64,000 bases of DNA from Rubrivivax sp. (GCA_040400915.1 JBBAPI010000006.1:704-64703); one strand, 5' to 3'; positions 9,490-64,000 are shown, numbered from the stretch's first letter. Program-made: numbers and translations. Notes: generated from the sequence alone by a model not told the origin.

Positions 9490-10889
9490 CGTGGGACGAA
9501 AAGGTGCCGCAGTTCGCTGCACCCGATACGGAGCAGTTCGCCGACAGAAGTGTCGAGCTCTCTGAGCGCATCGCGCGGCCACTTCCAGTTGTTGTAAGCC
9601 AACTGAACCAGACCTTGAGCGATGACAACCCCCCAGATGCCAGAAGCTGTCCATGCACACAGCGCGTATCCCAGGCAGGCGATGGCCAAGCCCGAAACAA
9701 TAGCGGCGCCGGCAAACGGAACCTTGTTGAGCGTCGTCAGGTAGTGAGCAGCGATGGAGTGGTTCATCTCCAGGAATGCGATCGTAACCATGGCCAGCAG
9801 GACCGGCGTGTCGAGCAAGTGCACTTGCCGGCCCAAATGCGCCAGCAATTCGTGCCCGAAAGAGGCCAGCAAGAAAGCGCCGAAGGCAAAGATGATCCAG
9901 GAGGAGACGACAGATAGCCCGACCGCCTGCTTCAGCAGCGCCCTGTCGCCGCGCGCCTGCGCCGCGTTCATGCGCGGCAGTTGCAGGATCACCAGCAACG
10001 ACGCCACGCCGGAAATCAGCAGCAACAGTTGAAGCGTCAGGCCATATGACCCCGCGATTTTGAGCCCGAGGTACGAGGAGACCACCAAGGTATTCGCGCG
10101 AATGATCAGGAAGCCGCCCAGCTGCACAACGAACAGTCGCCAGGCGTTGGGCCACAGGGTCCGCATCACTTCGACCGTCGTGGGCCGGACGTCCGTCGGC
10201 GCGGTTGACGGCGGAACAAGACCCTTGAAGTAGTGATGGGCAAGCCATCGGCCGACAACGCACGAAACCAGAGAGGCGATGCCGAGCGCCATCAGTTGCT
10301 GCTCGAAGATCAGTCCCAGTGCAGCAAGCAGAACGAAGCTGCCCCGCGTCAGCACCGTGATTCTGCTGTTCTGCCCGACATTCCCGTGCCCGAGGATGAA
10401 GGCGCTGTAATAGCCGTAGAAGACGTTGATGGTTATTCCACTCGCGTAAACCACCCAAGCGAGAACGGCAGTTCCTGCGCCAGCCTCACTCTTGGACACC
10501 AGCGTGGCGACATAGGCGCTGCCGCCGAGCACCAGGCAGACCGCAACCAGTGCAGTGATGACCTTGTAGCTGGCCCGACCTCCTGCGATCAGCGCCGTCA
10601 GTAGGCCGACGCTGACCGACGAGTTGGGACGCGGGGCCTGCAGCCCGATGCCGCTCAGGCTGTCCGCGCCAGCGAAGACATATGCAGCGGTGCGCGATAG
10701 CGTCGGCTGCAGGGCCAGTTCGAACAACTGGGCCATGGCGACCAGCGTCAGGAAGACGAACCAGAGGCCAACCTGCTCAGGGGAAAGTGTCAGCAGCACC
10801 ACCGGTAACAGCAACACGCCGCTGCCGATGTTGACCAGCTGAGCTGCATAACCCCAGGCGATGTCGGCATGTCTGAGTGGCTGCGTCAT
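9486..10889 (-). CDS. wzx: Wzx O-unit flippase
   Basis: 467 aa, about 12 TM segments, N-terminus WGYAAQLVNIGSGVLLLP...GLWFVF; follows the sugar-pathway genes. Confidence 0.85.
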   Translation of the reverse strand: MTQPLRHADIAWGYAAQLVNIGSGVLLLPVVLLTLSPEQVGLWFVFLTLVAMAQLFELALQPTLSRTAAYVFAGADSLSGIGLQAPRPNSSVSVGLLTALIAGGRASYKVITALVAVCLVLGGSAYVATLVSKSEAGAGTAVLAWVVYASGITINVFYGYYSAFILGHGNVGQNSRITVLTRGSFVLLAALGLIFEQQLMALGIASLVSCVVGRWLAHHYFKGLVPPSTAPTDVRPTTVEVMRTLWPNAWRLFVVQLGGFLIIRANTLVVSSYLGLKIAGSYGLTLQLLLLISGVASLLVILQLPRMNAAQARGDRALLKQAVGLSVVSSWIIFAFGAFLLASFGHELLAHLGRQVHLLDTPVLLAMVTIAFLEMNHSIAAHYLTTLNKVPFAGAAIVSGLAIACLGYALCAWTASGIWGVVIAQGLVQLAYNNWKWPRDALRELDTSVGELLRIGCSELRHLFVPR

Positions 10890-50924: not shown

Positions 50925-51790
50925 GCGGCCCGGTGGCCGTGCCCCTGGGCGAACGCGTGGCGGTGGCGGCACAGCACCTGCTGCCCCAGCAGGCCTTGAC
51001 GCAGTTCGCGGGTCTTGTGGCGGGGTGGCAAGGCGGTGCGGCCACCACCGCGATCATCCGCTGGTTCGTGGCCCGCTACGGCGTGAACATGGCCGAGGCC
51101 GCCCAGCCCGACCCCGCCCGTTACGCCAGCTTCAACGACTTCTTCACCCGCGCCCTGAAGCCCGATGCCCGGCCTCAGGCGCAGGCCGATCTGGTCTGCC
51201 CGGTGGACGGCGCGATCAGCCAGTTCGGCGCCATTGCAGGCGACCAGATCTTCCAGGCCAAGGGCCATGCCTACAGCACGACGGCGCTGCTGGGCGGCGA
51301 CGGCGCACTGGCCGCGCATTTCCATGGCGGCCATTTCGCCACGCTCTACCTCAGCCCCAAGGACTACCACCGCATCCACATGCCCTGCGCGGGTCGGCTG
51401 CTGCGCATGATCTACGTGCCGGGCGCCTTGTTCTCGGTGAACCCGGCCACCGCGCGCGGCGTGCCCGGTCTGTTCGCGCGCAACGAGCGCGTGGTCTGCG
51501 TGTTCGACGGCGAACACGGGCCGTGGGTCAACGTGCTGGTCGGTGCCACCATCGTCGGCAGCATGGCCACGGTGTGGCACGGCGTGGTCAATCCGCCGCG
51601 TCCGGGCGGGCTGCGCGAGTGGGCCTACGAGGCGGGTCAGGTCGATCTGCCGCAAGGCGCCGAGATGGGCCGCTTCCTGCTGGGCTCGACGGTGGTGATG
51701 CTGTTTCCGCGCGGACCGCTGCGCTTCAACCCGGCGTGGACGCCGGGGCGGGCGATCCGGCTCGGCGAGGCCATGGCGCAGCGCGCCTGA
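50921..51790 (+). CDS. psd: Phosphatidylserine decarboxylase proenzyme
   Basis: FNDFFTR, PVDG, YLSPKDYHRIH, RNER and the LGST autocleavage motif. Confidence 0.95.
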   Translation: MSGPVAVPLGERVAVAAQHLLPQQALTQFAGLVAGWQGGAATTAIIRWFVARYGVNMAEAAQPDPARYASFNDFFTRALKPDARPQAQADLVCPVDGAISQFGAIAGDQIFQAKGHAYSTTALLGGDGALAAHFHGGHFATLYLSPKDYHRIHMPCAGRLLRMIYVPGALFSVNPATARGVPGLFARNERVVCVFDGEHGPWVNVLVGATIVGSMATVWHGVVNPPRPGGLREWAYEAGQVDLPQGAEMGRFLLGSTVVMLFPRGPLRFNPAWTPGRAIRLGEAMAQRA

Positions 51791-51806
51791 AGCCACCCCC
51801 GGGCCT

Positions 51807-52400
51807 TCAACCGAACAGACCCGGCGCGTGCACCGGGTCGTCGACCTCGCTGTAGAAGCAGGACGGGCAGACCGCGCGGTAGCGCTCGTTGCCGCCGATG
51901 ACGACCTGCTCGCCCTGCTGCACGCGCCGGCCCTGGTCGTCGACCCGCAGGTTCATGCTGGCCTTGCGCGCGCAGGCGCAGATGGTCTTCATCTCTTCCA
52001 GGTCGTCGGCCAGCGTCAGCAGGGCCGCCGCACCGGGAAAGGCGTCGCCGCGGAAGTCGCTGCGCAGCCCGTAGCACAGCACGGGCCGGTGGGCGGCGTG
52101 GGCCAGGCGGTGCAGCTGCCGCACCTGCCCGGGCGTCAGGAACTGGGCTTCGTCGATCAGCACGCAGGCGTAACCCGTGCCCAGCCAGTCGGCGTCGAAG
52201 ACCGTCTGCGGGCCGAAGGTCTCGACCGGCCGCTGCAGGCCCAGGCGCGAGCCGATGATGCCGGGGCCGGCGCGGTCATCGTGCGCGGCGGTGAACAGGC
52301 GCACCTGCATGCCCCGTTCTTCGTAGTTGTGCGCCGCCTGCAGCAAGGCGGTGGACTTGCCGGCGTTCATCGCGGCGTAGCGGAAATACAGTTTGCTCAC
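51807..52400 (-). CDS. tdk: Thymidine kinase
   Basis: AAMNAGKST P-loop, LIDEAQFL, YGLRSDF and Zn ligands CAC...CPSC; GTG start 52400. Confidence 0.93.
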   Translation of the reverse strand: MSKLYFRYAAMNAGKSTALLQAAHNYEERGMQVRLFTAAHDDRAGPGIIGSRLGLQRPVETFGPQTVFDADWLGTGYACVLIDEAQFLTPGQVRQLHRLAHAAHRPVLCYGLRSDFRGDAFPGAAALLTLADDLEEMKTICACARKASMNLRVDDQGRRVQQGEQVVIGGNERYRAVCPSCFYSEVDDPVHAPGLFG

Positions 52401-52407
52401 GGCGGGC

Positions 52408-52435
52408 ACTCTACCCGCCAGCGCGGCCGGTCCAA
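52408..52435 (-). promoter_or_regulatory. Candidate sigma70 promoter of tdk (probably leaderless mRNA)
   Basis: TTGGAC-N16-TAGAGT on -, with GTG 8 nt downstream. The -35 lies within the palindrome GTCCAA-GCCGG-TTGGAC (52430-52446). Confidence 0.4.
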
Positions 52436-52482
52436 GCCGGTTGGACGCGCCGCTTGCGGGCCACGGCAAGCCGCCGGCGGCC

Positions 52483-53151
52483 TCAGGCCGTCAGCAGCCC
52501 CCGCTGCTCGATGAAGCGGATCACGGCGTCCAGGCCTTCGCGCGTGCGCAGGTTGGTCATCACGTAGGGCCGCTTGGCCTTGTCCCCGGCGTGGTCGGGC
52601 CGCATCCGCCGGGTGTCGGCTTCCATCACCTCCAGGCTGGCGCCCACATGGGGCGCGAGGTCGATCTTGTTGATCACCAGCAGGTCGCTCTTGGTGATGC
52701 CCGGGCCGCCCTTGCGCGGAATCTTCTCGCCGCCGGCCACGTCGATGACATACAGCGTCAGGTCGCTGAGTTCCGGGCTGAAGGTGGCCGCCAGGTTGTC
52801 GCCGCCGCTCTCGATGAAGACGATGTCGGCGTTGGGGAACTTCTCCAGCATCCGGTCCACCGCCTCGAGGTTGATCGAGGCGTCTTCGCGGATGGCGGTG
52901 TGCGGGCAGCCGCCCGTCTCGACGCCGACGATGCGCTCGGCGTCGAGCGCACCGGCCACGGTCAGCAGGCGCTGGTCTTCCTTGGTGTAGATGTCGTTGG
53001 TGACGACGACCAGGTCCCAGCGGTCGCGCAAGGTCTTGCAGAGCATCTCGACCAGGGTGGTCTTGCCCGAACCCACCGGGCCGCCCACGCCGACGCGCAG
53101 CGGGGGCAGTTTCTTGGTGCGGCCGACGATGTGGTGGAGGGGGCTGTTCAC
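52483..53151 (-). CDS. ureG: Urease accessory GTPase UreG
   Basis: [27 protein letters not shown] and NKID. Confidence 0.97.
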
Positions 53152-53205
53152 ACCGGGGATGATGCACGAAGCGTGCTCAGCCCCGGCTACAGCCCTGCAA
53201 GGCGG

Positions 53206-53793
53206 TCACTTTGAGGTGTAGCCGCGGGCGTCCATGCAGGCATCGACGGCGCGCATGAAGACCGAGGAATCGTTCAGCGCGGCAGGCTGCGTGGTCGCCC
53301 AGCGGTTGCACTCCTGGCGGTCGGCTTCCAGCTGTTGCGCCGACTGGCCGTTGCGCGGGTAGATCACCGGTTCAGGCCGGCTCGGCGCCGCCGCCGGCGC
53401 GGGCGCGGGCGGTGCCGCATACACCTGCGGCGGCTGCTCGACGATGACCGTGGTCGGGCCGGGGTAGACCCAGGGCGAGGCCAGCAGCAAGCCCGCGCCG
53501 AGGCCCACACCCACACCCCAGCCACAGCACCAGCCGCCGGGGTAGCCGCCGTAGTAACCGCCGTAGTAGCGACCGCTGCGGCCGCCGTAGCCGCCGCCAT
53601 GGCCACCGCGATAGCCGACGTTGACAACCCCGACGGGGCCGCCGGTGCGGTAGACGGCCGGGCTCAGCGTGAGCGGGGCGCCGGCGCTGACGGCTGCCGA
53701 TACGCCATCGGCATGCGCCGCAGCCGCGATAGCGGTCAACACGGCAACGACCGCGCCCCGACGAAGGGTCGTAGACAGTGAAACTTTCAGCAT
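53206..53793 (-). CDS. Hypothetical secreted Gly/Tyr/Pro-rich protein with a C-terminal two-Cys domain
   Basis: Signal peptide ending AHA, GGYYGGY repeats, PAPAPA linker, YPRNGQSAQQLEADRQEC..WA...ACMDARGY; GGAGG RBS. Confidence 0.75.
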   Translation of the reverse strand: MLKVSLSTTLRRGAVVAVLTAIAAAAHADGVSAAVSAGAPLTLSPAVYRTGGPVGVVNVGYRGGHGGGYGGRSGRYYGGYYGGYPGGWCCGWGVGVGLGAGLLLASPWVYPGPTTVIVEQPPQVYAAPPAPAPAAAPSRPEPVIYPRNGQSAQQLEADRQECNRWATTQPAALNDSSVFMRAVDACMDARGYTSK

Positions 53794-53941
53794 GGCAAGC
53801 ACCTCCGGCAATCAAGCCGCCATGATGCACCCGCGACCACCCGGCCGCTTGACGGGTCTGCAAAGTATCGTGAACGGTGGGTGACGCCGGTGTCAGACCG
53901 GCCGACGAAGACGGCTGGCCGGCCCGTGCCGGACCGGAGCT

Positions 53942-54649
53942 TCAGGACCGGAACAGCCGCGAATACTGGGTCTCGTGCTGGGCGCTCAGGATGGTCAGCA
54001 TCGGGCTGTGCGCCTGGCGTTCAGGCTCGGGCAGAACCAGCGCGCGTTCGACCGCCTCGGGTATCGCCGCCGCCAATCGGGCCAGGATGCGCTGCGCGGC
54101 CGACTGACCCAGCGGCACGGCCTTCATCGCCGCCTGCGCCATGTTTTCAGCCCAGCCCCAGGCGCAGGCCAGCAAGGCCCCGCGGGCGTCGCTGCCCGCC
54201 AGCACGGCCGCCAGCGCGAAGGCCATCGGCCACAGTGGTGCCGGTTGCAGGGCGGCCAGCGTGCCCAGGCGGGCGTCGGTGGCCTGCGGGCCATTGCGCA
54301 GCCATTCCAGCAGGCTGCGCCCCATCTGTTCGGACTGGGCGCGGAATTCGGCGCTTTCGCGGGTGCAGCGCAGCCAGTCGTTGAGTTCGGCCACGCGCGC
54401 TGCGTCCTGCGCCTGCCAGGCGGCGCAGGCCAGCGCCAGGGTCGGCAGGTCGGACCGGGCCAGCGTCAGCTCCAGCTGTGCCGTCAGCCAGTCGGCAGCC
54501 TGGGCTTCCGTGCTCACGCAGCCCGCCTCGACCGCCGCTTCCAGCCCCTCGGAATAACTGAAACCGCCCACCGGCAGGGCTGGCGAGGCCAGCCACATCA
54601 GCTGCAGCCGGGTGGCCGCTGTTTCAGTGTTCGTGGGGGCCGTGGTCAT
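53942..54649 (-). CDS. ureF: Urease accessory protein UreF
   Basis: [26 protein letters not shown] and [11 protein letters not shown]. Confidence 0.95.
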
Positions 54650-55283
54650 GACCGCAACCCGGGCCGTGCACATGGGGCGCGGCCTTCACGGCGATGCCCA
54701 GCGGCTTGCCGCGGGCCGGCACCGCCGCGGGCGCTGCGGCGCCGTGGCCGGCGGCGTGATCGGGTTCGGCCGCGGGCGCGTGGTCATGGCCGTGGTCCTG
54801 GCCTGCGCCATGCGCGTGCCCGACCGTGGCCGCTGCGTAGGCGCCCGACTCGGGTTCGAAGGCCGACTGTTCCTCGCTGACGATCAGGTGCATGGCGCGC
54901 AGCAGGTCGGCCAGCACGTGGTCGGGTTCCAGCAGCAGCCGGTCGGCTTGCAGTTCCAGCGGCACATGGCGGTTGCCCAGGTGGTAGGCGGCGCGCAGCA
55001 GGTCGAAAGCGCTGCCGTGCTCGGCGCAGGCGCGCACCACCAGCACGGGCTGCGGCGCGGCCAGCACGCGGATGATGGAACCGTCCTCGGCCACCAGCGC
55101 GTCACCGCCGCGCAGCACGCTGCCGCGCGGCAGGAAGATGCCCAGGGCGCGTCCGCCGCTGTCGGTGGCGTCGAGGCGGCTCTTCCGGCGTTCGTCCCAG
55201 CCCAGTTCGATGGTGGTGGCGCGCTTGAGCAGTGCGGTTGCGAGGCCCTGTGAGCGGGGCAGCAGTTTGTTGACGGTCAGCAT
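54624..55283 (-). CDS. ureE: Urease Ni-chaperone UreE with His-rich tail
   Basis: [26 protein letters not shown] and FEPESGAY, followed by a His-rich C-terminus. Confidence 0.95.
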
Positions 55284-55317
55284 GGGTGGATTGTCGCCTG
55301 GCGCTATGCGCGGGCCG

Positions 55318-55764
55318 TCAAGGCTTGGCGAAGTAGCGCACGCCGGGCAGGCCCTCGAAGTGGCTGTCCTGGGTCCAGAGTTCAGCATGGTGCAGTTGGG
55401 CGGTGGCGTAGATCAAGCTGTCGGCCAATGGCAGGCCGTTGACAGCGGCTGCCAGCGCCAGCGGCAAGTCGACAGACACCACTTGGCCGCGTTGCATCAG
55501 CGACAAAGCGGCGGCTGCCACCTCGTCACCCGCTTCACGCACCAGCTTCTTGGCCACTTCATAGACGGTGACGACAGGCACCACCAGGTGCTCGGGCTGC
55601 GCCAGCGCCTCGGCGTACAGGTCGGCCCGCGCGCTGTCGGTGAAGAATTCCAGCCAGCACGATGAGTCCAGTACGCGCAGGGTGGGCTGGGCGGCGGCCC
55701 TGGTCTTGGCCCTTGCCCGGGTCTGGGTGGGCGGCGCCATCGGCTTCGAGCCCGCCCCGGCCAT
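55318..55764 (-). CDS. vapC: VapC PIN-domain toxin (module 1)
   Basis: VLDSSCW, YEV, LADS and TQD acidic residues; TGATG coupling to the antitoxin. Confidence 0.9.
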   Translation of the reverse strand: MAGAGSKPMAPPTQTRARAKTRAAAQPTLRVLDSSCWLEFFTDSARADLYAEALAQPEHLVVPVVTVYEVAKKLVREAGDEVAAAALSLMQRGQVVSVDLPLALAAAVNGLPLADSLIYATAQLHHAELWTQDSHFEGLPGVRYFAKP

Positions 55765-55973
55765 CAGGCGATCCGATCGGCGTCGCGTGCGATGTCGGGG
55801 TTGATGCCCCGTGCGATGCCGCGCAATTCGGCTGCGCTGCGCAACGGCATCAGGCGCAGGCCGCCGTTGAAGTCCACCACCATCAACTTGGTGCCGGCCT
55901 GCAGCTTCAGCCGTTGGCGCACGGCCAGCGGGATGACGACCTGGAATTTCGGCGAAACGGTGACGGTGTCCAT
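55764..55973 (-). CDS. AbrB/MazE/SpoVT-family antitoxin (module 1)
   Basis: 69 aa; VTVSPKFQVVIPLAVRQRLKL.AG. Confidence 0.9.
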   Translation of the reverse strand: MDTVTVSPKFQVVIPLAVRQRLKLQAGTKLMVVDFNGGLRLMPLRSAAELRGIARGINPDIARDADRIA

Positions 55974-55974
55974 G

Positions 55975-56015
55975 TCGATCAATGTAGCGTATGCCGAGTA
56001 TTTGATCGATGTAAA
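55975..56015 (-). promoter_or_regulatory. Promoter/operator of TA module 1
   Basis: TTTACA(56015-56010)-N18-TACGCT(55991-55986) on -. Perfect 8-bp inverted repeat TCGATCAA(55975-82)/TTGATCGA(56002-09). Confidence 0.55.
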
Positions 56016-56028
56016 TTCGCTGGCCAAG

Positions 56029-57756
56029 CTAGAACAGGAAGTACTTCTGCGCCAGCGGCAGCACCGTCGCCGGCTCGCAGGTCAGCAACTGCCCGTCGGC
56101 CCGCACCTGGTAGGTCTGGGCGTCGATCTGCATCTTCGGCAGGTAGTCGTTCAGCACCATGTCGTGCTTCTTCACACTGCGGCAGCCGTGCACCACGCTC
56201 AGCCGCTTGCGCAGGCCCAAGGCATCCCCGATGTCGTTGTCCATCGCCGCCTTGCTCATGAAGGTCAGGCTGGTGGCCTGCACCAGGCGGCCGCAGCTGC
56301 CGAACATCGGCCGGTAGTGCACGGGTTGCGGTGTCGGGATGCTGGCGTTGGCGTCGCCCATCAGCGCCGCGGCAATGAAGCCGCCCTTCAGAATCAGGCT
56401 GGGCTTGACGCCGAAGAAGGCCGGGCGCCACAGCACCAGGTCGGCCCACTTGCCGACTTCGATGCTGCCCACGTCGTGCGAAATGCCGTTCGCGATCGCC
56501 GGGTTGATCGTGTACTTGGCGATGTAGCGCTTGACCCGGTTGTTGTCGTTGCGCTCAGAGTCACCGGCCAGCGCGCCACGCTGCGCCTTCATCTTGTGCG
56601 CCGTCTGCCAGGTGCGGATGATGACTTCGCCGACGCGGCCCATGGCCTGGCTGTCGCTGGACATCATGCTGATCGCGCCCAGGTCGTGCAGCACGTCTTC
56701 GGCGGCGATGGTTTCCCGGCGGATGCGGCTTTCGGCAAAGGCCAGGTCTTCGGCGATGGACGGGTCGAGGTGGTGGCAGACCATCAGCATGTCCAGGTGC
56801 TCGTCCACCGTGTTGGCGGTGTAGGGCATGGTCGGGTTGGTGCTGCTGGGCAGGAAATTGGCCTCGCCGACGACGCGCAGGATGTCCGGCGCGTGGCCGC
56901 CGCCGGCGCCTTCGGTGTGGAAGGCGCACAGGGTGCGCCCGCCGGTGGCGGCCACCGTGTCTTCGACGAAGCCGCTTTCGTTCAGCGTGTCGCTGTGGAT
57001 GCTGACCTGGGTGTCGGTGGCCTCGGCCACGTCCAGGCAGTTGCTGATGGCCGCCGGCGTGGTGCCCCAGTCTTCGTGCAGCTTCAGGCCGATGGCGCCA
57101 GCGGCGATCTGCTGGCTGAGCGCCGCGGCCTGCGTGGCGTTGCCCTTGCCCAGGAAGCCCAGGTTCATCGGGAAGGCCTCGGCCGCCTGCAGCATGCGGT
57201 GGATGTTCTCGGGGCCGGGCGTGCAGGTGGTGGCGAAGGTGCCGGTGGCCGGGCCGGTGCCGCCGCCCAGCATGGTGGTCACGCCGCTCATCAACGCTTC
57301 TTCGATCTGCTGCGGGCAGATGAAGTGGATGTGGCTGTCGATGCCGCCGGCGGTCAGGATCATCCCCTCGCCGGCAATGATCTCGGTGCCTGGGCCGATG
57401 ACGATGTCCACCCCCGGCTGCACGTCGGGGTTGCCGGCCTTGCCGATGGCCGCAATGCGGCAGCCCTTGAGGCCGACATCGGCCTTGACGATGCCCCAGG
57501 TGTCGATGATCAGCGCGTTGGCGATGACGCAGTCGGCGGCCTCGGCGTGGCCGGGGCCGTTGACAACCTGGCTCTGGCCCATGCCGTCGCGGATGGTCTT
57601 GCCGCCGCCGAATTTCACTTCCTCGCCGTAGCCGCCCGCGGCCAGCGTGTGGTCCTTTTCGACCTCGACGATCAGGCCCGTGTCGGCCAGGCGCAGGCGG
57701 TCGCCGGCCGTGGGGCCGAACATCTCGGCGTAGGCGCGTTTTCCGATCAGGGCCAT
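56029..57756 (-). CDS. ureC: Urease alpha subunit
   Basis: [44 protein letters not shown] and SSDSQAMGR. Confidence 0.99.
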
Positions 57757-58061
57757 CACAGTGCTCCGTTCACCAGACCGCGGAAGCCCCAGACCTGGCG
57801 CAAGCCGGCGTAGGCCACCAATTCGACGGTGCGTTGCTGCCCCGGCTCGAAGCGCACCGCGGTGCCGCTGGCGATGTTCAGGCGCATGCCCTTGGCGGCT
57901 TCGCGGTCGAAGCGCAGGGCCGCATTGGTTTCGGCGAAGTGGTAATGCGAACCCACCTGTATCGGGCGATCGCCGGTGTTGGCCACCACCACCGTGGCGG
58001 TGGCGCGGCTGGGGTTCAAGGTGTGGAAGCCGTCGTCGATCAGCAGTTCGCCGGGTGTCAT
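57756..58061 (-). CDS. ureB: Urease beta subunit
   Basis: [15 protein letters not shown] and GTAVRFEPG. Confidence 0.98.
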
Positions 58062-58087
58062 CGTGTGGTGTCCTTGGGTTCTTGAAA

Positions 58088-58513
58088 TCAGTTCATGGGC
58101 CAGGCTGACAGTGGCTGCAGCCGGCCCAGCGCTGCGGCCTTGCGGCAATAGGCTTCGTCGGCGGTGACCAGCACGGCGTCTTCGGTTTCCAGCGCCAGCG
58201 CGTGGTACAGCGTGTCGAACAGGTGGTGGTTCAGCTGCTGGCTGAGCTGCATGGCGCGCCAATAGACCCGGTCATCGTCCCGCGAACGCAGGCCCAAGGC
58301 GCGCAAATTCGCCAGGTGCCGTTCCATCCGATCCGGTGTCTCGCGCGCCAGCACGGCGCACACCTCGGCCTGGAAGTGCGGCGGTTGCAGCAACTGGTGT
58401 CGGCCGTCGACATGGCCCTGCAGGATGTCCAGCGCGGCGGCGCCATCGTCTTCGCCGGAGCGTTCATGAAAGAACCACTTCAGAGCGACGCTGGCGTCGA
58501 CCACCAGCTTCAC
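58088..58513 (-). CDS. vapC: VapC PIN-domain toxin (module 2)
   Basis: [23 protein letters not shown] and VTAD; GTG start overlaps the antitoxin stop. Confidence 0.88.
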
Positions 58514-58743
58514 GGACGCCCAGCCCGGCGCGCAGCGGCCAGTTGTCTCGAACTGCGGACCGGCGCCGTGCTGCGCATGTCCAGGATGCTGGCCAGGGCG
58601 GCCTCGCGCAGGCGCTGCTCCTGCGCCAGCGCGATGGCCGTGCGCAACAGTTGCGTCAATACCGCGCTCTTGTTCTGGCCCTCGAAGGTGGCGTTGAACG
58701 CTTGTTTCACATCCTCGGGGACACTGAAATTCATCGTGGCCAT
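58510..58743 (-). CDS. Ribbon-helix-helix type antitoxin (module 2)
   Basis: 77 aa; MATMNFSVPEDVKQAF...NKSAVLTQLL; directly upstream of the PIN gene. Confidence 0.8.
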   Translation of the reverse strand: MATMNFSVPEDVKQAFNATFEGQNKSAVLTQLLRTAIALAQEQRLREAALASILDMRSTAPVRSSRQLAAARRAGRP

Positions 58744-58755
58744 GTCACGACCCCA

Positions 58756-58801
58756 TTGTTGAAGAGTTCAACAACTTAGCCGATGCGTCCGACGCCGTCA
58801 A
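58756..58801 (-). promoter_or_regulatory. sigma70 promoter and perfect operator of TA module 2
   Basis: TTGACG(58801-58796)-N17-TAAGTT(58778-58773) on -. Palindrome TTGTTGAA-N3-TTCAACAA at 58756-58774. Confidence 0.75.
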
Positions 58802-58812
58802 GGCAGCCGGTT

Positions 58813-59115
58813 TCAGGTGATGGGTTGGTGCACGGTCACCAGTTTGGTGCCATCGGGGAAGGTGGCTTCGACCTGGATTTCGCTGACGATTTCCGGCACG
58901 CCGTCCATCACGTCGTCGCGGCCCAGGACGGTTTTGCCGTCGCTCATCAACTGGGCCACGGTCTTGCCGTCGCGGGCCCCTTCCAGGATGCCGCAGCTGA
59001 TGAAGGCGATGGCCTCGGGCACGTTCAGCTTCAAGCCGCGCGCCCGTCGGCGTTCGGCCAGCAGGCCGGCAGTGAAGAGCAGCAGTTTGTCTTTTTCGCG
59101 GGGTGTCAGGTCCAT
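58813..59115 (-). CDS. ureA: Urease gamma subunit
   Basis: [12 protein letters not shown]...RGLKLN.PEA...[14 protein letters not shown]. Confidence 0.99.
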
Positions 59116-59201
59116 GCTGGGGGCTCATTCACGTCGGGTGCCAGCATCCTAACCGTCGACCCTGGGCCGGTGGCGCAGTCCGTGCATCATCGCCACCCAG
59201 C

Positions 59202-62200
59202 ATGAGTGCCTTGCCCCTTTCGGCCCCAGCATCGAGCGACGCCCCGCCGGCGCCGCAGCAGCGCGTCATCAAGGTCCGCCGCGACTACAACGCCTGGGTC
59301 GCCAGCGAGAGCCTGGAAGACTACGCGCTGCGCTTCACGCCGCGCAGCTTCCGCAAGTGGAGCACTTGGCGTGTGGCCAACACCGCCATCGGCGGGGCGG
59401 CCTCCTTTCTGGTTCTGGAAGCCGTGGGCGCCACGCTGCTGCTGCAGTTCGGTTTCATCAACGCCTTCTGGGCCGTTCTGGCCACCGCGCTGATCATCTT
59501 CGCCGCCGGCCTGCCGATCAGCGTCTACGCCGCGCGCCACGGGCTGGACATGGACCTGCTGACGCGCGGCGCCGGCTTCGGCTACATCGGCAGCACCATC
59601 ACCAGCCTGATCTACGCCAGCTTCACCTTCATCTTTTTCGCGCTGGAAGCGGCCATCATGGCCTACGCGCTGGAACTGGCCTGGGGCATCCCGCCGACCT
59701 GGGGCTACCTGCTGTGCGCGCTGGTGGTCATCCCGCTGGTCACCCACGGCGTCACGGCCATCAGCCAGCTGCAGGTGTGGACGCAGCCGCTGTGGCTGGC
59801 GCTGCTGGTGTTGCCCTACGGCTACGTCTTCCAGGCGCATCCGGGCTTGGTCGGCGAACTGCGCGTCTACGCCGGTGCAAGCGGGCAGGGTGGTGGCTTC
59901 AACCCGCTGCTCTTCGGCGGCGCGCTGACGGTGGGCATCGCGCTGATCACGCAGATGGGTGAGCAGGCCGACTACCTGCGCTTCATGCCCGAGAAGACCG
60001 TGGCCACGCGCGGCCGCTGGTGGCTGGGCGTGTTGATCGGCGGCCCCGGCTGGGTCATCCCCGGCGTGTTGAAGATGCTGGGCGGCATGCTGCTGGCCTA
60101 CCTGGCGCTGACGCTGGCCGTGCCGGCCGACCGCGCGGTCGACCCCAACCAGATGTACCTGGCGGCCTACGAACTGGTCTTTCCGCACTACACCTGGGCG
60201 GTGGCGGCCACGGCTTTGCTGGTCATCGTCAGCCAGCTGAAGATCAACGTGACCAACGCCTACGCCGGCAGCCTGGCCTGGTCGAACTTCTTCGCCCGCG
60301 TCACGCACAGCCACCCCGGCCGCGTCGTCTGGGTGGTGTTCAACACCCTGATCGCGCTGATGCTGATGGAGCTGGAGGTCTTCAAGGCCATCGCCGGCGT
60401 GCTGGGCCTGTACAGCAACATCGCCATCAGCTGGATCATGGCCGTGGTGGCCGATCTGGTGGTCAACAAGCCGCTGGGCTGGTCGCCCAAGGGCATCGAA
60501 TTCAAGCGGGCGCACCTCTACGACATCAACCCGGTGGGCGTGGGTGCCATGGGCTTGGCTTCGGTGCTGTCCATTGCGGCCTACCTGGGCGTCTTCGGCG
60601 CGATGGCGCAGGCCTTCTCGGCGGTGATCGCGATGGCGGTGGCCTTCGTCACGTCGCCGCTGATCGCCTGGGCGACCCAGGGCCGCTACTACATCGCCAG
60701 AACATCCGTTGACCCCAAGGCCGCCGCAAGCGGCGACCGTCCCCCGAGGGGAGCGATGCATCCTTGGGGCGGCCCGGCGGATGCATCCGACGACGGCGCC
60801 TACCTGGGCGCGACCAGCGGCGTGCTGAAGCTGCGCCGCTGCGTGATCTGCGAGCGCGACTACGAAGGCGAAGACATGGCGCAGTGCCCGGCCTACGGCG
60901 GGCCGATCTGCAGCCTGTGCTGCGCGCTGGACGCCCGCTGCCACGACCTGTGCAAGCCCGAACCCGCGCGCGCGCCGTGGCAGCTGACGGCGCTGCTGCG
61001 CCGCCTGACGCCACGCGCCTGGTGGCCGCAGCTGGACACGGGGCTGGGCCGCTACCTGCTGCTGATGGCCGTCGTGGCGCCCGCGCTGGCCGGTCTGCTG
61101 AGCCTGCTCTACCAGGCCGAACTGCGCCACCTGGGCGATGCGGCCGGGGCGCTGGCCCCGGCACTGCGCGCCGGCTTCATCAAGGCCTGGTGCGGGCTGG
61201 TGCTGGTGGCCGGGGTGATCGGCTGGTGGGGGGTCCTGACGCAGATCAGCCGCCGCGTGGCGCAGGAGGAAAGCAACCGCCAGACCCAAGCCCTGATGCG
61301 CGAGATCGATGCCCACCACCGGACGGACGAAGCCCTGCAGCGCGCCAAGCAGGCTTCGGAGGCCGCCAACCAGGCCAAGACGCGCTACATCAGCGCCGTC
61401 AGCCACGAACTGCGCACACCGCTGAACAGCATCCTGGGCTATGCGCAACTGCTCGACGAAGACCCGACCTTGCCGGTGCACCGCAAGCAGGCGGTGGGCG
61501 TGATCCGGCGCGGCGGCGAACACCTGCTGAGCCTGATCGAAGGCACGCTGGACATCGCGCGCATCGAAGGCGGCAAGCTGGCGCTGGAGCCCAAGCCGAT
61601 GCGCCTGCACGAGGCGCTGCGCCAGATCGTGCAGATGTTCGAGCTGCAGGCGGCCAGCAAGGGCCTGCGCTTCGAGCACCACATCGAGGGCGCGCCCGCG
61701 CTGGTCAAGGCCGACGAGCGGCGGTTGACGCAGATCCTGATCAACGTGCTGGGCAATGCCGTCAAGTTCACGCCGGCCGGCCGCGTCAGCTTCCGCGCCC
61801 TGCCTGTGCGTGGCATGACCGTGTTCGAGATCGAGGACACCGGGCCGGGCATCGCCGCGCAGGACCTGGAACGCATCTTCGAACCCTTCTCGCGCGGCGG
61901 TGCTGCGGCCGGTGCGCCGAGTGGTGGCACGGGACTGGGCCTGACCATCGCCAAGATGCTGACCGACCTGATGGGCGGCGAGATGACGGTGTCGTCGCGC
62001 ACCGCGGCCGAGGGCGTCGGCATGTCCGGCACCTTGTTCCGCGTGCGCCTCTTCCTGCCCGAACTGCAAGGTGCAAGAGCCCCGCAGCCCTTGCCCTTGC
62101 GTGCCGGCTACGCGGGCGCGCGGCGCCGTGTGCTGGTGGTGGACAACGAAGAAATCGACCGCACGCTGCTGGCCGCCCGGCTGCAGGCTGTCGGCTTCGA

Positions 62201-62762
62201 CGTGCTGCAGGCCAGTTCCGGCCACGCCGCCCTGGCCCTGCTGCATGAACACGCCGTGAGCCTGACGGCCGTCGACGCCATCCTGATGGACCTGGCCATG
62301 CCCGGCATCGACGGCTGGGAAACCATCCGCACGCTGCGCCGCCAGCGGCTGAGCAGCGCGCCGGTGGCCATCGTTTCGGCCAACGCCTTCGACAAGGGGC
62401 TGGACAACGATGTCGGCACCACCCCGGCCGACTTCATCACCAAGCCGGTTCGCTTCGACGAACTGCTGGACTGGCTGGGCCGCGGCCTGGGGCTGCAATG
62501 GCTGGCCCAGCCGCCCGAACCGCCGCCCACGCCGACGCCGTCCGATGCGCCGCGCCCCACGCGCACCCAGTTGCTGGCGCTGCGCGAGGTGGTGAACCTG
62601 GGCTACCCGCGCGGCGTGCAGCGGCTGCTGGACCAGATCGAGGCCGAAAGCCCTGACTGCACGGCCTGGCTGGCGCCGCTGCGCGCGCTGGCCGCCGGCT
62701 TCCAGTTCGACCGCATCCCACCGCTGATCGACGCCGCGCTGGCGCAAGTCGATGTCCACTGA
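59202..62762 (+). CDS. Hybrid sensor histidine kinase with N-terminal permease-like (NCS1/APC-type) domain, Cys-rich linker, HisKA, HATPase and REC
   Basis: About 12 hydrophobic segments in the first ~490 aa; 8-Cys motif; H box SHELRTPL, N box GNAVKFT, G1 EDTGPGI, F box IFEPF, G2 GTGLGL; receiver LMDLAMP...TKP. Confidence 0.92.
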   Translation: MSALPLSAPASSDAPPAPQQRVIKVRRDYNAWVASESLEDYALRFTPRSFRKWSTWRVANTAIGGAASFLVLEAVGATLLLQFGFINAFWAVLATALIIFAAGLPISVYAARHGLDMDLLTRGAGFGYIGSTITSLIYASFTFIFFALEAAIMAYALELAWGIPPTWGYLLCALVVIPLVTHGVTAISQLQVWTQPLWLALLVLPYGYVFQAHPGLVGELRVYAGASGQGGGFNPLLFGGALTVGIALITQMGEQADYLRFMPEKTVATRGRWWLGVLIGGPGWVIPGVLKMLGGMLLAYLALTLAVPADRAVDPNQMYLAAYELVFPHYTWAVAATALLVIVSQLKINVTNAYAGSLAWSNFFARVTHSHPGRVVWVVFNTLIALMLMELEVFKAIAGVLGLYSNIAISWIMAVVADLVVNKPLGWSPKGIEFKRAHLYDINPVGVGAMGLASVLSIAAYLGVFGAMAQAFSAVIAMAVAFVTSPLIAWATQGRYYIARTSVDPKAAASGDRPPRGAMHPWGGPADASDDGAYLGATSGVLKLRRCVICERDYEGEDMAQCPAYGGPICSLCCALDARCHDLCKPEPARAPWQLTALLRRLTPRAWWPQLDTGLGRYLLLMAVVAPALAGLLSLLYQAELRHLGDAAGALAPALRAGFIKAWCGLVLVAGVIGWWGVLTQISRRVAQEESNRQTQALMREIDAHHRTDEALQRAKQASEAANQAKTRYISAVSHELRTPLNSILGYAQLLDEDPTLPVHRKQAVGVIRRGGEHLLSLIEGTLDIARIEGGKLALEPKPMRLHEALRQIVQMFELQAASKGLRFEHHIEGAPALVKADERRLTQILINVLGNAVKFTPAGRVSFRALPVRGMTVFEIEDTGPGIAAQDLERIFEPFSRGGAAAGAPSGGTGLGLTIAKMLTDLMGGEMTVSSRTAAEGVGMSGTLFRVRLFLPELQGARAPQPLPLRAGYAGARRRVLVVDNEEIDRTLLAARLQAVGFDVLQASSGHAALALLHEHAVSLTAVDAILMDLAMPGIDGWETIRTLRRQRLSSAPVAIVSANAFDKGLDNDVGTTPADFITKPVRFDELLDWLGRGLGLQWLAQPPEPPPTPTPSDAPRPTRTQLLALREVVNLGYPRGVQRLLDQIEAESPDCTAWLAPLRALAAGFQFDRIPPLIDAALAQVDVH

Positions 62763-63711
62763 AGGTTCGCCGCGCGCCGCGTTGGTTCCCGAACGCGCCA
62801 GCAGCGCCGGTCTGGTGCTGATCGTCGACGACGTGCCCGACAACCTGGCCGTGCTGCACGACGCGCTGGACGAAGCCGGCTACACCGTGCTGGTGGCCAC
62901 CGACGGCGCCACGGCGCTGCAGCGCGCCGCGCAGGCCGAACCCGACATCGTGCTGCTGGACGCGGTGATGCCGGGCATGGACGGCTTTGAAGTGGCGCGG
63001 CGCCTGAAGGCCGGGCCCGAGACGGCGCACATCCCCATCGTTTTCATGACCGGCCTGACCGAAACCGAACACGTGCTGGCGGCCTTCGAAGCCGGTGGCG
63101 TCGACTACGTCACCAAGCCCATACGCCCGCCCGAGGTGCTGGCCCGCATGGCCGCCCACATGCAGGCTGCGCGCCAGGCCCGGCAGGCGCGCAATGCGCT
63201 GGACGCCTACGGCCACGCCACCATCGCGGTGCGTGTGGAGGGTGATCGCGCGCGCTTGACCTGGCAGACGCCGCTGGCTCGGCGCTGGCTGCCGGCCTAC
63301 TTCGAGTGCGTGCCCGGCGAGGTGCCCGCCCCGCTGCTGGCGTGGTTGCAAGGCGTTGCGGCGGGGCGTGAGGCGCGGCCGCTGTCCAGCGCGCGGGGCG
63401 CCCAGCAACTGGTCTGCACCTTGCAAGGCCGCACGCCCGACGAAGACTGGCTGGTCGTGCTGCGCGAGGTCAGCGACGCCGCCACCGTGGAAGCCACGAT
63501 GCAGGCCCTGGGCCTGACGCTGCGCGAGAGCGAGGTGCTCTACTGGGTGGTCAAGGGCAAGACCAACCGCGACATCGGTGACATCCTGGGCAGCAGCCCG
63601 GCCACCGTGAAGAAGCACCTGGAACGGGTCTATGAGAAGTTGGGTGTCGAGACGCGCACCGCGGCCGCCGGCGTGGCCCTGCAGCGGGTACGGGCTCTGG
63701 CGCAGACCTGA
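62752..63711 (+). CDS. Response regulator, REC plus LuxR-type HTH
   Basis: LIVDD, LLDAVMP and VTKP; C-terminal LTLRESEVLYWVVKGKTNRDIG.IL..SPATVKKHLE; overlaps the kinase stop by 11 bp. Confidence 0.93.
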   Translation: MSTEGSPRAALVPERASSAGLVLIVDDVPDNLAVLHDALDEAGYTVLVATDGATALQRAAQAEPDIVLLDAVMPGMDGFEVARRLKAGPETAHIPIVFMTGLTETEHVLAAFEAGGVDYVTKPIRPPEVLARMAAHMQAARQARQARNALDAYGHATIAVRVEGDRARLTWQTPLARRWLPAYFECVPGEVPAPLLAWLQGVAAGREARPLSSARGAQQLVCTLQGRTPDEDWLVVLREVSDAATVEATMQALGLTLRESEVLYWVVKGKTNRDIGDILGSSPATVKKHLERVYEKLGVETRTAAAGVALQRVRALAQT

Positions 63712-63917
63712 GCCGCCGCCGCCCCGGTGCAAGCAGCACGAGAGTCGGCTGCCCGCCCGCCCGAGCGAAGCCGCGTGATGCTGCCGACCGGTGGGTCGCA
63801 CGGCGGGCGCGGCGGAGGCGCTATCGTCCGGCTCCGGCAGCCGCCTGCCCGCTGGGCGGTGGCCCCGAACGGCACCTTCTCTGCATCCAGGATTCGAATC
63901 GTCAGGGTGGCACCCTC

Positions 63918-64000
63918 ATGCACGTGGTGGAGATCAACGCGAGCAGCGACATCAAGGCCCTGCTGCTGACCGATGTGGTGGACAGCACCCAGCTGTCATC
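63918..64000 (+). CDS. N-terminal fragment of a probable class III nucleotide-cyclase-domain protein (truncated by the edge)
   Basis: Translates MHVVEINASSDIKALLLTDVVDSTQLS; LLTDVVDST resembles the cyclase F-x-D-I-x-x-S-T motif. Only 27 codons are visible. Confidence 0.5.
   Translation, partial: MHVVEINASSDIKALLLTDVVDSTQLS

Follow-up and report, generated by a model that had tools for sequence, protein, structure and literature searches.

Background

VapBC toxin-antitoxin (TA) modules, among them VapBC26 (5x3t) and VapBC11 (6a7v) of Mycobacterium tuberculosis, the VapBC of Shigella and Salmonella, and VapBC2 of Rickettsia, are stand-alone loci in which the antitoxin and toxin genes overlap, the PIN-domain toxin carries four acidic residues, and a DNA-binding antitoxin is paired with a palindromic operator at the module's own promoter. 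In a 64,000-nucleotide stretch of Rubrivivax sp. DNA (GCA_040400915.1 JBBAPI010000006.1:704-64703; hereafter the window), two mutually unrelated modules of this type lie instead inside a metabolic operon, among the structural and accessory genes of the urease (ure) cluster: vapB1-vapC1 (module 1) separates ureA from ureB, and vapB2-vapC2 (module 2) separates ureC from ureE. Both share with the described systems the overlapping gene pair, the four-acid toxin and, as predicted here, a palindromic operator at their own promoter, while they differ from them in a VapB1 whose family is without relatives in Pfam, NCBIfam or the PDB and in a VapC2 with a variable basic N-terminal tail of ~30 aa. We consider it probable, with some reserve, that these are two autonomous VapBC cassettes, selfish or addictive, which reside in permissive and recurrently used ure spacers of a freshwater Burkholderiales lineage and were not built for urease control.

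Several other described systems resemble this arrangement in part. FitAB combines a ribbon-helix-helix (RHH) antitoxin with a PIN toxin (2bsq), and many VapC2 homologues are named 'toxin FitB' by JGI; the VapB2 of the window, however, is of the AbrB type and not RHH. Extra genes within ure clusters have precedents, as Bordetella bronchiseptica has ureJ between its ureA and ureB genes and additional open reading frames (ORFs) are interspersed in the ure cluster of Rhizobium leguminosarum. HupE/UreJ likewise occupies the ureA-ureB spacer and leaves the cluster undisrupted, but as a nickel permease it has a functional tie to urease, whereas no connection with urease chemistry is evident for the TA cassettes. 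Stabilization of accessory DNA is known from the TA cassettes of the Vibrio superintegron and from mosAT of SXT, where, as here, a gene set that is dispensable and horizontally mobile harbours small TA modules that would penalize its deletion; the window differs in that no integron attC site, integrative and conjugative element (ICE) or integrase was found around the cassettes, for which a stabilizing role is conjectural. NtrPR of Sinorhizobium meliloti, compared here by its description, is a VapBC-type module with an AbrB-type antitoxin and a PIN toxin that is reported to affect nitrogen-regulated genes and offers a lead for co-option, but it forms a stand-alone operon and does not lie inside ure.

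A full-text literature search returned no paper that connects TA modules to ure operons; in two candidates the terms do occur, but in unrelated places. TA modules within a ure cluster therefore seem to be an undescribed but mechanistically unremarkable setting for known TA families. No new mechanism is revealed by the locus itself, and its interest lies in the recurrent association of TA modules with ure. The movement and persistence of chromosomal TA modules are poorly understood, and this case is both compact and comparable: two junctions of a conserved metabolic operon have been filled, emptied and refilled by several TA families, with no transposase.

Two intact VapBC modules inside the urease cluster

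The ORF list, Pfam matches and the sequence itself give the minus-strand order ureA, vapB1-vapC1, ureB-ureC, vapB2-vapC2, ureE, ureF, a 201-aa gene, ureG and tdk (Table 1). All six urease genes present (ureA, ureB, ureC, ureE, ureF and ureG) are intact and have Pfam matches, and the modules fit tightly between them, with spacers of 69 nt (ureA-vapB1), 26 nt (vapC1-ureB), 55 nt (ureC-vapB2) and 34 nt (vapC2-ureE). An initial annotation, made from the sequence of the window, had proposed two unrelated, intact and co-oriented VapBC modules, toxins that keep the four acidic PIN residues and are coupled to their antitoxins, and the lack of a transposase. All of this was borne out. The vapC1 GTG start lies on the vapB1 stop codon (GTGA), and the vapC2 ATG shares one base with the vapB2 stop (TGATG). 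In family alignments D6, E50 and D100 of VapC1 are invariant and D119 is conserved in ≥ 90% of members, while the VapC2 tetrad (D33, E69, D115, D133) is invariant throughout. Neither a transposase nor an integrase is found among the ORFs across 51.6–64 kb, and no terminal inverted or direct repeat or target-site duplication brackets either cassette.

Comparisons of structure for VapC1 and of sequence for VapC2 place both toxins among the VapC proteins, although sequence searches of the PDB returned no match for VapB1 or VapC1. The AlphaFold (AF2) model of VapC1 has a predicted local distance difference test (pLDDT) score of 95, and its top Foldseek matches are VapC toxins, the best being the M. 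tuberculosis VapC in 5x3t_B (TM 0.73, E 6e-6). VapC2 has one weak match among PDB sequences, to VapC11 of M. tuberculosis, and is 47% identical to VapC genes on Leptospira plasmids that are annotated as type II toxins. VapB1 matches nothing in Pfam, NCBIfam or PDB sequences; its AF2 monomer (pLDDT 88) consists of an extended N-terminus and helices at residues 10–19, 25–58 and 65–74, Foldseek aligns the model over its full length with two RHH antitoxins, AtaR and FitA, though below significance (E 3–9), and some of its homologues are named CopG/Arc/MetJ by JGI. Judged from this model, VapB1 is probably an RHH protein. Residues 1–32 of VapC2 (55660-55764) form the variable basic tail ahead of the first PIN strand, and no alternative start codon in the window would trim it. 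A Lys/Arg/Ala/Pro-rich tail of 20–40 aa precedes the PIN domain in nearly all members of the VapC2 family. Taken together, both pairs are ordinary-looking, intact VapBC type II TA modules with a predicted RNase toxin.

Each module as a self-contained cassette

Both modules are self-contained cassettes that bring their own predicted promoter and operator, in addition to any ure transcript. In cassette 1, a -35 element TTGACG (58801-58796) is followed after a 17-nt spacer by a -10-like TAAGTT (58778-58773), and a 19-nt palindrome, TTGTTGAA-CTC-TTCAACAA (58774-58756), overlaps both the -10 element and the expected transcription start. The same palindrome (TTGTTGAA-N3-TTCAACAA), together with TTGAC(G/C) and a TAnnnT hexamer ~17 nt further on, occurs upstream of vapB1 homologues at 17 loci, ure and non-ure alike, and it overlaps the hexamer in every context examined. 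Cassette 2 has a -35-like TTTACA (56015-56010), an 18-nt spacer and a -10-like TACGCT (55991-55986), accompanied by the inverted boxes TCGATCAA (56009-56002) and TTGATCGA (55982-55975). The arrangement (T)GATCGAT ... CATACGCTA ... TGATCGAC-ATG is kept upstream of vapB2 homologues both after ureC and between TctC genes, and no Shine-Dalgarno sequence stands ahead of the vapB2 ATG, so the vapB2 leader is probably very short. These conserved upstream blocks would be the autoregulatory regions expected of type II TA operons.

The pairs travel as units. Among the matches listed, vapB1 lies directly upstream of a VapC1 homologue at ~76 of 80 genome loci, nearly all of them outside ure clusters (in Methylibium, for instance, a VapC1-type cassette adjoins mutS); this genome-collection set is without the closest relatives of the window and under-samples ure-associated VapBC1. 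An AbrB gene precedes the vapC2 homologue in every context examined, and two VapC2 homologues were found between TctC genes.

Within the ure cluster the cassettes replace the spacer cleanly, as far as alignment of spacers can tell, and keep the downstream ribosome-binding site: the ureB site AAGGA (AAGGACAC) is retained 26 nt past the vapC1 stop and is identical in relatives that have no cassette 1. No terminator-like site was detected in the ure spacers. Given this and the shared orientation of cassettes and ure genes, ure transcripts probably run through both cassettes, and the initial proposal that every urease transcript also encodes two RNases is plausible on the same ground. Seven metatranscriptome runs share just conserved ure words with the window, and in four of them read depth falls on ureA, ureB, ureC and ureE with essentially none on the TA genes, which indicates that these reads come from other organisms.

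Inheritance of module 1 and turnover behind ureC

The arrangement ureA-vapB1-vapC1-ureB was found in at least four other lineages (L003/L179-L186, which comprises two NCBI assemblies, one ENA assembly and several sequencing runs; L187; L001; and L007), so that the insertion, at least for module 1, is not specific to one strain. In L007, a Rubrivivax metagenome-assembled genome (MAG), the spacer is expanded to ureA-[ABC transporter]-[FitA/PIN]-[VapBC1]-ureB, with a true FitA-like RHH and PIN pair. Freshwater populations related to the window have contigs that span ureB-vapC1-vapB1-ureA; they carry module 1 and are variable for module 2. Synonymous divergence (dS) between the window and L003 is 0.44 for vapB1 and 0.49 for vapC1, against 0.45 for ureA, 0.43 for ureB and 0.36–0.43 for ureEFG, and in the comparison with L187 the dS of module 1 likewise tracks that of the neighbouring ure genes. 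Ratios of nonsynonymous to synonymous divergence (dN/dS) are 0.13–0.18 for vapB1 and 0.35–0.38 for vapC1. Since its dS matches that of the flanking ure genes, these sequence comparisons place module 1 in the ancestor that the window shares with the L003 and L187 lineages, followed by vertical inheritance and co-divergence under purifying selection.

Module 2 has a more patchy distribution. VapC2-family cassettes lie directly 3' of ureC in four other lineages, in the orders ureC-[65 aa + DUF6036]-vapBC2-gmk (L165), ureC-[AbrB/PIN]-vapBC2-LysR-ureE (L166/L167) and ureC-vapBC2 (L176 and L178 each). The closest relative, L003, whose UreC is 95% identical, is without module 2; its 76-nt ureC-ureE spacer opens with TTTTCATCGATCAAA, a match to the 5' portion of the promoter of cassette 2, and this remnant suggests that cassette 2 was likely lost there by deletion. 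One related population has a contig in which ureE is joined directly to ureC. In the UreC tree, the lineages compared at this junction form a single clade whose members carry TA cargo as a rule. The junction 3' of ureC appears to have held a changing set of TA modules (VapBC2, the DUF6036 pair and a second AbrB/PIN pair) that was subject to differential loss.

The genes of cassette 2 are also under constraint, with dN/dS of 0.02–0.29 for vapB2 and 0.08–0.19 for vapC2; at dS 0.75–0.80, the ratio (omega) of vapB2 is 0.02–0.05. A recent horizontal transfer of cassette 2 was considered for L178, where VapB2 is 97% and UreC 80% identical, and was rejected: the dS of 0.75 points to strong constraint as the source of the high VapB2 identity.

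As a separate observation at this junction, a ~65-aa protein and a DUF6036/AbiEii-like nucleotidyltransferase are encoded directly after ureC in L001 (10553-11150), L165 (~2090-2680) and L187 (~9740-10339); the unit is probably another TA-like module.

Toxin-antitoxin cargo at ure junctions

The wider distribution was assessed in 80 metagenome loci picked solely by UreB similarity (76–84% identity). The spacer between ureA and ureB is seldom short in these loci (median ~200 nt) and holds HupE/UreJ in 16 of 75, whereas ureB and ureC are contiguous in 72 of 75; the premise of the initial annotation that ureABC are usually contiguous thus does not hold in this clade, in which ~200 nt or more between ureA and ureB is the norm. 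Cargo is present in 7 of 39 ureC-ureE junctions, and in five of these seven it is an AbrB(doc_partner)-Doc module that adjoins ureE, is divergently transcribed, and is spread over three separate UreC clades. Most of the UreB-selected clusters carry no TA module. Related Burkholderiales have TA cassettes of at least six kinds at the same two junctions, with AbrB-Doc, FitA-PIN, a second AbrB-PIN and the DUF6036 nucleotidyltransferase pair in addition to VapBC1 and VapBC2, which agrees with the earlier idea of a hotspot. In the 263 kb flanking the same ure clusters, none of eleven TA queries found a match and none of 72 small predicted ORFs matched a TA Pfam family; as gene calling in these flanks was crude, the enrichment (5 of 39 junctions against none in the flanks) is indicative and not a proper statistic.

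This recurrence bears on whether the site is special at all. Two unrelated cassettes could have landed independently and neutrally in a TA-rich genome, and TA modules are indeed abundant and promiscuous: VapC1 has > 3,000 and VapC2 > 1,600 relatives in the protein collection. The PLSDB plasmids hold no relative of VapC1 and only distant ones of VapC2 (≤ 47% identity). Furthermore, the 64-kb window holds no other member of either PIN subfamily, so there is no local clustering beyond the ure cluster, a point in favour of coincidence. Many lineages, however, repeatedly hold TA cargo of several families at precisely these junctions, and five modules in 39 ureC-ureE junctions stand against none in 263 kb of flanks; we therefore regard coincidence as very unlikely.

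The turnover of unrelated toxin families at the same junctions is also what is seen in known defence hotspots. The ure spacers might accordingly form a small islet of anti-phage or abortive-infection genes (PIN, Doc and an AbiEii-like nucleotidyltransferase), with cargo kept in turnover by phage pressure and not by urease biology. The DUF6036 protein has a weak AbiEii match in both Pfam and PADLOC, Doc is recognized by candidate-system models of PADLOC, and PMC7438911 proposes phage inhibition as a primary role of TA systems. Against this, none of the four TA proteins of the window matches a PADLOC model, no larger defence system, integrase or phage remnant is adjacent, and module 1 is stably inherited and not turning over. 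A defensive function of the site is, in our view, distinctly unlikely. PMC7280312 views chromosomal TA systems as largely selfish, which is consistent with autonomous cassettes in permissive spacers, as is the defensive view of PMC7438911.

Persistence of the cassettes and relation to urease expression

If the modules are autonomous residents of the ure spacers, the antitoxin, alone or with its toxin, would bind its own operator and repress its own transcription, and would neutralize the PIN-domain RNase. Persistence would then follow from two properties, namely that TA modules are hard to lose (addiction) and that these spacers tolerate insertion. Transcripts from the ure promoter would read through both cassettes, ureBC and ureEFG would receive some basal transcription of their own from the cassette promoters, and read-through could be impeded by a complex bound to the operator between ureA and ureB.

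Such effects could also have been put to use. Under functional co-option, the modules would be wired into urease or nitrogen physiology through co-transcription that ties VapC dosage to urease induction, and they might cause growth arrest on nitrogen starvation, process ure mRNA, or tune ureA, ureBC and ureEFG through repressor roadblocks or internal promoters. The orientation of the cassettes along the ure genes, the tight spacers and the lack of terminators are compatible with this, as are the long retention of module 1 (dS ~0.45–0.8), the very strong selection on VapB2 (omega 0.02–0.05) and the presence of VapBC2 behind ureC even where ureEFG are not downstream. A role dedicated to urease is nevertheless disfavoured, because cassettes of the same kind recur together with their operators at unrelated loci (mutS, TctC), because the closest relative lost module 2 and kept its ure genes, and because relatives hold unrelated toxins at the same place, including a Doc in opposite orientation and the DUF6036 nucleotidyltransferase. 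The absence of TA modules from most UreB-selected clusters also speaks against it. We give co-option only a slim chance, and the roles in addiction, dormancy or ure-mRNA processing offered by the initial annotation are speculation.

Several observations weigh against our preferred interpretation of autonomous cassettes in permissive spacers. First, the promoter motifs are weak when judged against the sigma-70 consensus: a strict-consensus scan gave no site above threshold, and the conserved motifs reach 8 of 12 matches. Second, in the VapBC1 tree (neighbour joining, computed without support values) the non-ure cassettes of L002, L006 and L008 are nested in the ure-associated group, which implies that relocation or repeated insertion took place. 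Third, at these junctions all PIN and DUF6036 cassettes run in the direction of the ure genes and are free of terminators, which could equally reflect selection for co-expression. Fourth, mere tolerance does not explain the enrichment of TA modules at the junctions, and repeat and transposase searches around the cassettes provided no candidate for an insertion mechanism.

The ure spacers of this Burkholderiales group might also be preferred and adaptive landing or retention sites, at which TA modules would stabilize an operon that is often lost or transferred, could spread between species via the highly conserved ure flanks by homologous recombination, and, through their autoregulated promoters and operator-bound complexes, would reshape the ureA:ureBC:ureEFG expression ratio and couple toxin dosage to urease induction. 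We hold this to be rather unlikely.

Filled and scarred alleles are both available, and therefore insertion and retention, operon-internal promoters, roadblock effects and locus stabilization can all be tested. There is also a practical side for annotation, since interruptions are routine in the ure clusters of freshwater and soil Burkholderiales and should not be taken for pseudogenization.

Neighbouring genes and additional observations

The coordinates of all features are collected in Table 1.

Table 1 Features of the urease locus in the window (positions counted from the first letter of the 64,000-nt stretch)
Feature	Position	Strand	Description	Evidence
ureG	52483-53151	-	GTPase	Pfam cobW/HypB/UreG 3e-40
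201-aa gene	53206-53811	-	Gly-rich, between ureF and ureG	no family match
ureF	53942-54673	-		Pfam UreF 5.7e-39
ureE	54624-55283	-	nickel metallochaperone, 34 nt past vapC2 stop	Pfam UreE_N, UreE_C
vapC2	55318-55764	-	PIN-domain toxin, 148 aa	Pfam PIN 3.6e-15
vapB2	55764-55973	-	AbrB/MazE/SpoVT-type antitoxin, 69 aa	Pfam MazE_antitoxin 8.5e-7; TIGR01439 AbrB 6e-11
cassette 2 promoter/operator (predicted)	55975-56015	-		sequence and conservation upstream of vapB2 homologues
ureC	56029-57759	-	urease alpha subunit, start overlaps ureB stop	Pfam Urease_alpha, Amidohydro_1
ureB	57756-58061	-	urease beta subunit	Pfam Urease_beta 2e-42
vapC1	58088-58513	-	PIN-domain toxin, 141 aa, GTG start	Pfam PIN 1.7e-9
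vapB1	58510-58743	-	antitoxin, 77 aa, family unannotated, probably ribbon-helix-helix	no Pfam
cassette 1 promoter/operator (predicted)	58756-58801	-	begins ~11 nt past ureA stop	sequence and conservation
ureA	58813-59115	-	urease gamma subunit, opens the cluster	Pfam Urease_gamma 4.1e-46
hybrid histidine kinase	59103-62762	+	divergent from ureA, true start uncertain	Pfam
LuxR/GerE response regulator	62752-63711	+		Pfam

No ureD/ureH was found in window positions 51637-64000, where the divergent kinase lies upstream of ureA and tdk (thymidine kinase) downstream of ureG; sequences from upstream of ureA in related loci, run against the window, matched the kinase alone. As the gene is not beside the cluster, ureD must lie elsewhere.

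The kinase has a multi-pass membrane N-terminus of ~600 aa without a Pfam match, followed by HisKA/HATPase/REC domains. Of 40 related metagenome loci, at least 18 encode this N-terminus (73–89% identity) upstream of ureA, as does L003. Together with the LuxR/GerE gene, the kinase forms a conserved, ure-adjacent two-component system that is apparently uncharacterized; from their position, the two are likely regulators of the ure cluster.

The 201-aa gene is a third non-urease component of the cluster. It is not a TA gene, its product has a signal-peptide-like N-terminus, and it has no match in Pfam, NCBIfam or PADLOC. A homologue of 184 aa occupies the same ureF-ureG position in L003, the ureF-ureG gap of L187 holds an unnamed 183-aa gene known by position and size, and most other sampled ure clusters lack the gene.

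At the AbrB-Doc junctions (L112 2890-3622; L114, L124, L127 and L155), the antitoxin gene runs opposite to ureE and always starts 45–70 nt away from the start of ureE, so that the module must share a divergent promoter region with ureE. Many Burkholderiales ureA-ureB spacers of 190–400 nt encode a small His-rich membrane peptide (AHEGHGLxGxHWHxxD; for example L126 1263-1457, L176 3388-3594 and L154) that only weakly resembles DUF6732 or the C-terminus of HupE and may be a nickel-related micro-protein. Lastly, the spacer between ureA and ureB is filled in L085 (5700-6000) by three tandem copies, and in L166 (2732-2869) by one copy, of a GC-rich element of ~98 nt (gcccccaagctcgct...ccccccagggggccgtccgcc...) that looks like a repeat of the repetitive extragenic palindrome or miniature inverted-repeat transposable element (REP/MITE) type.

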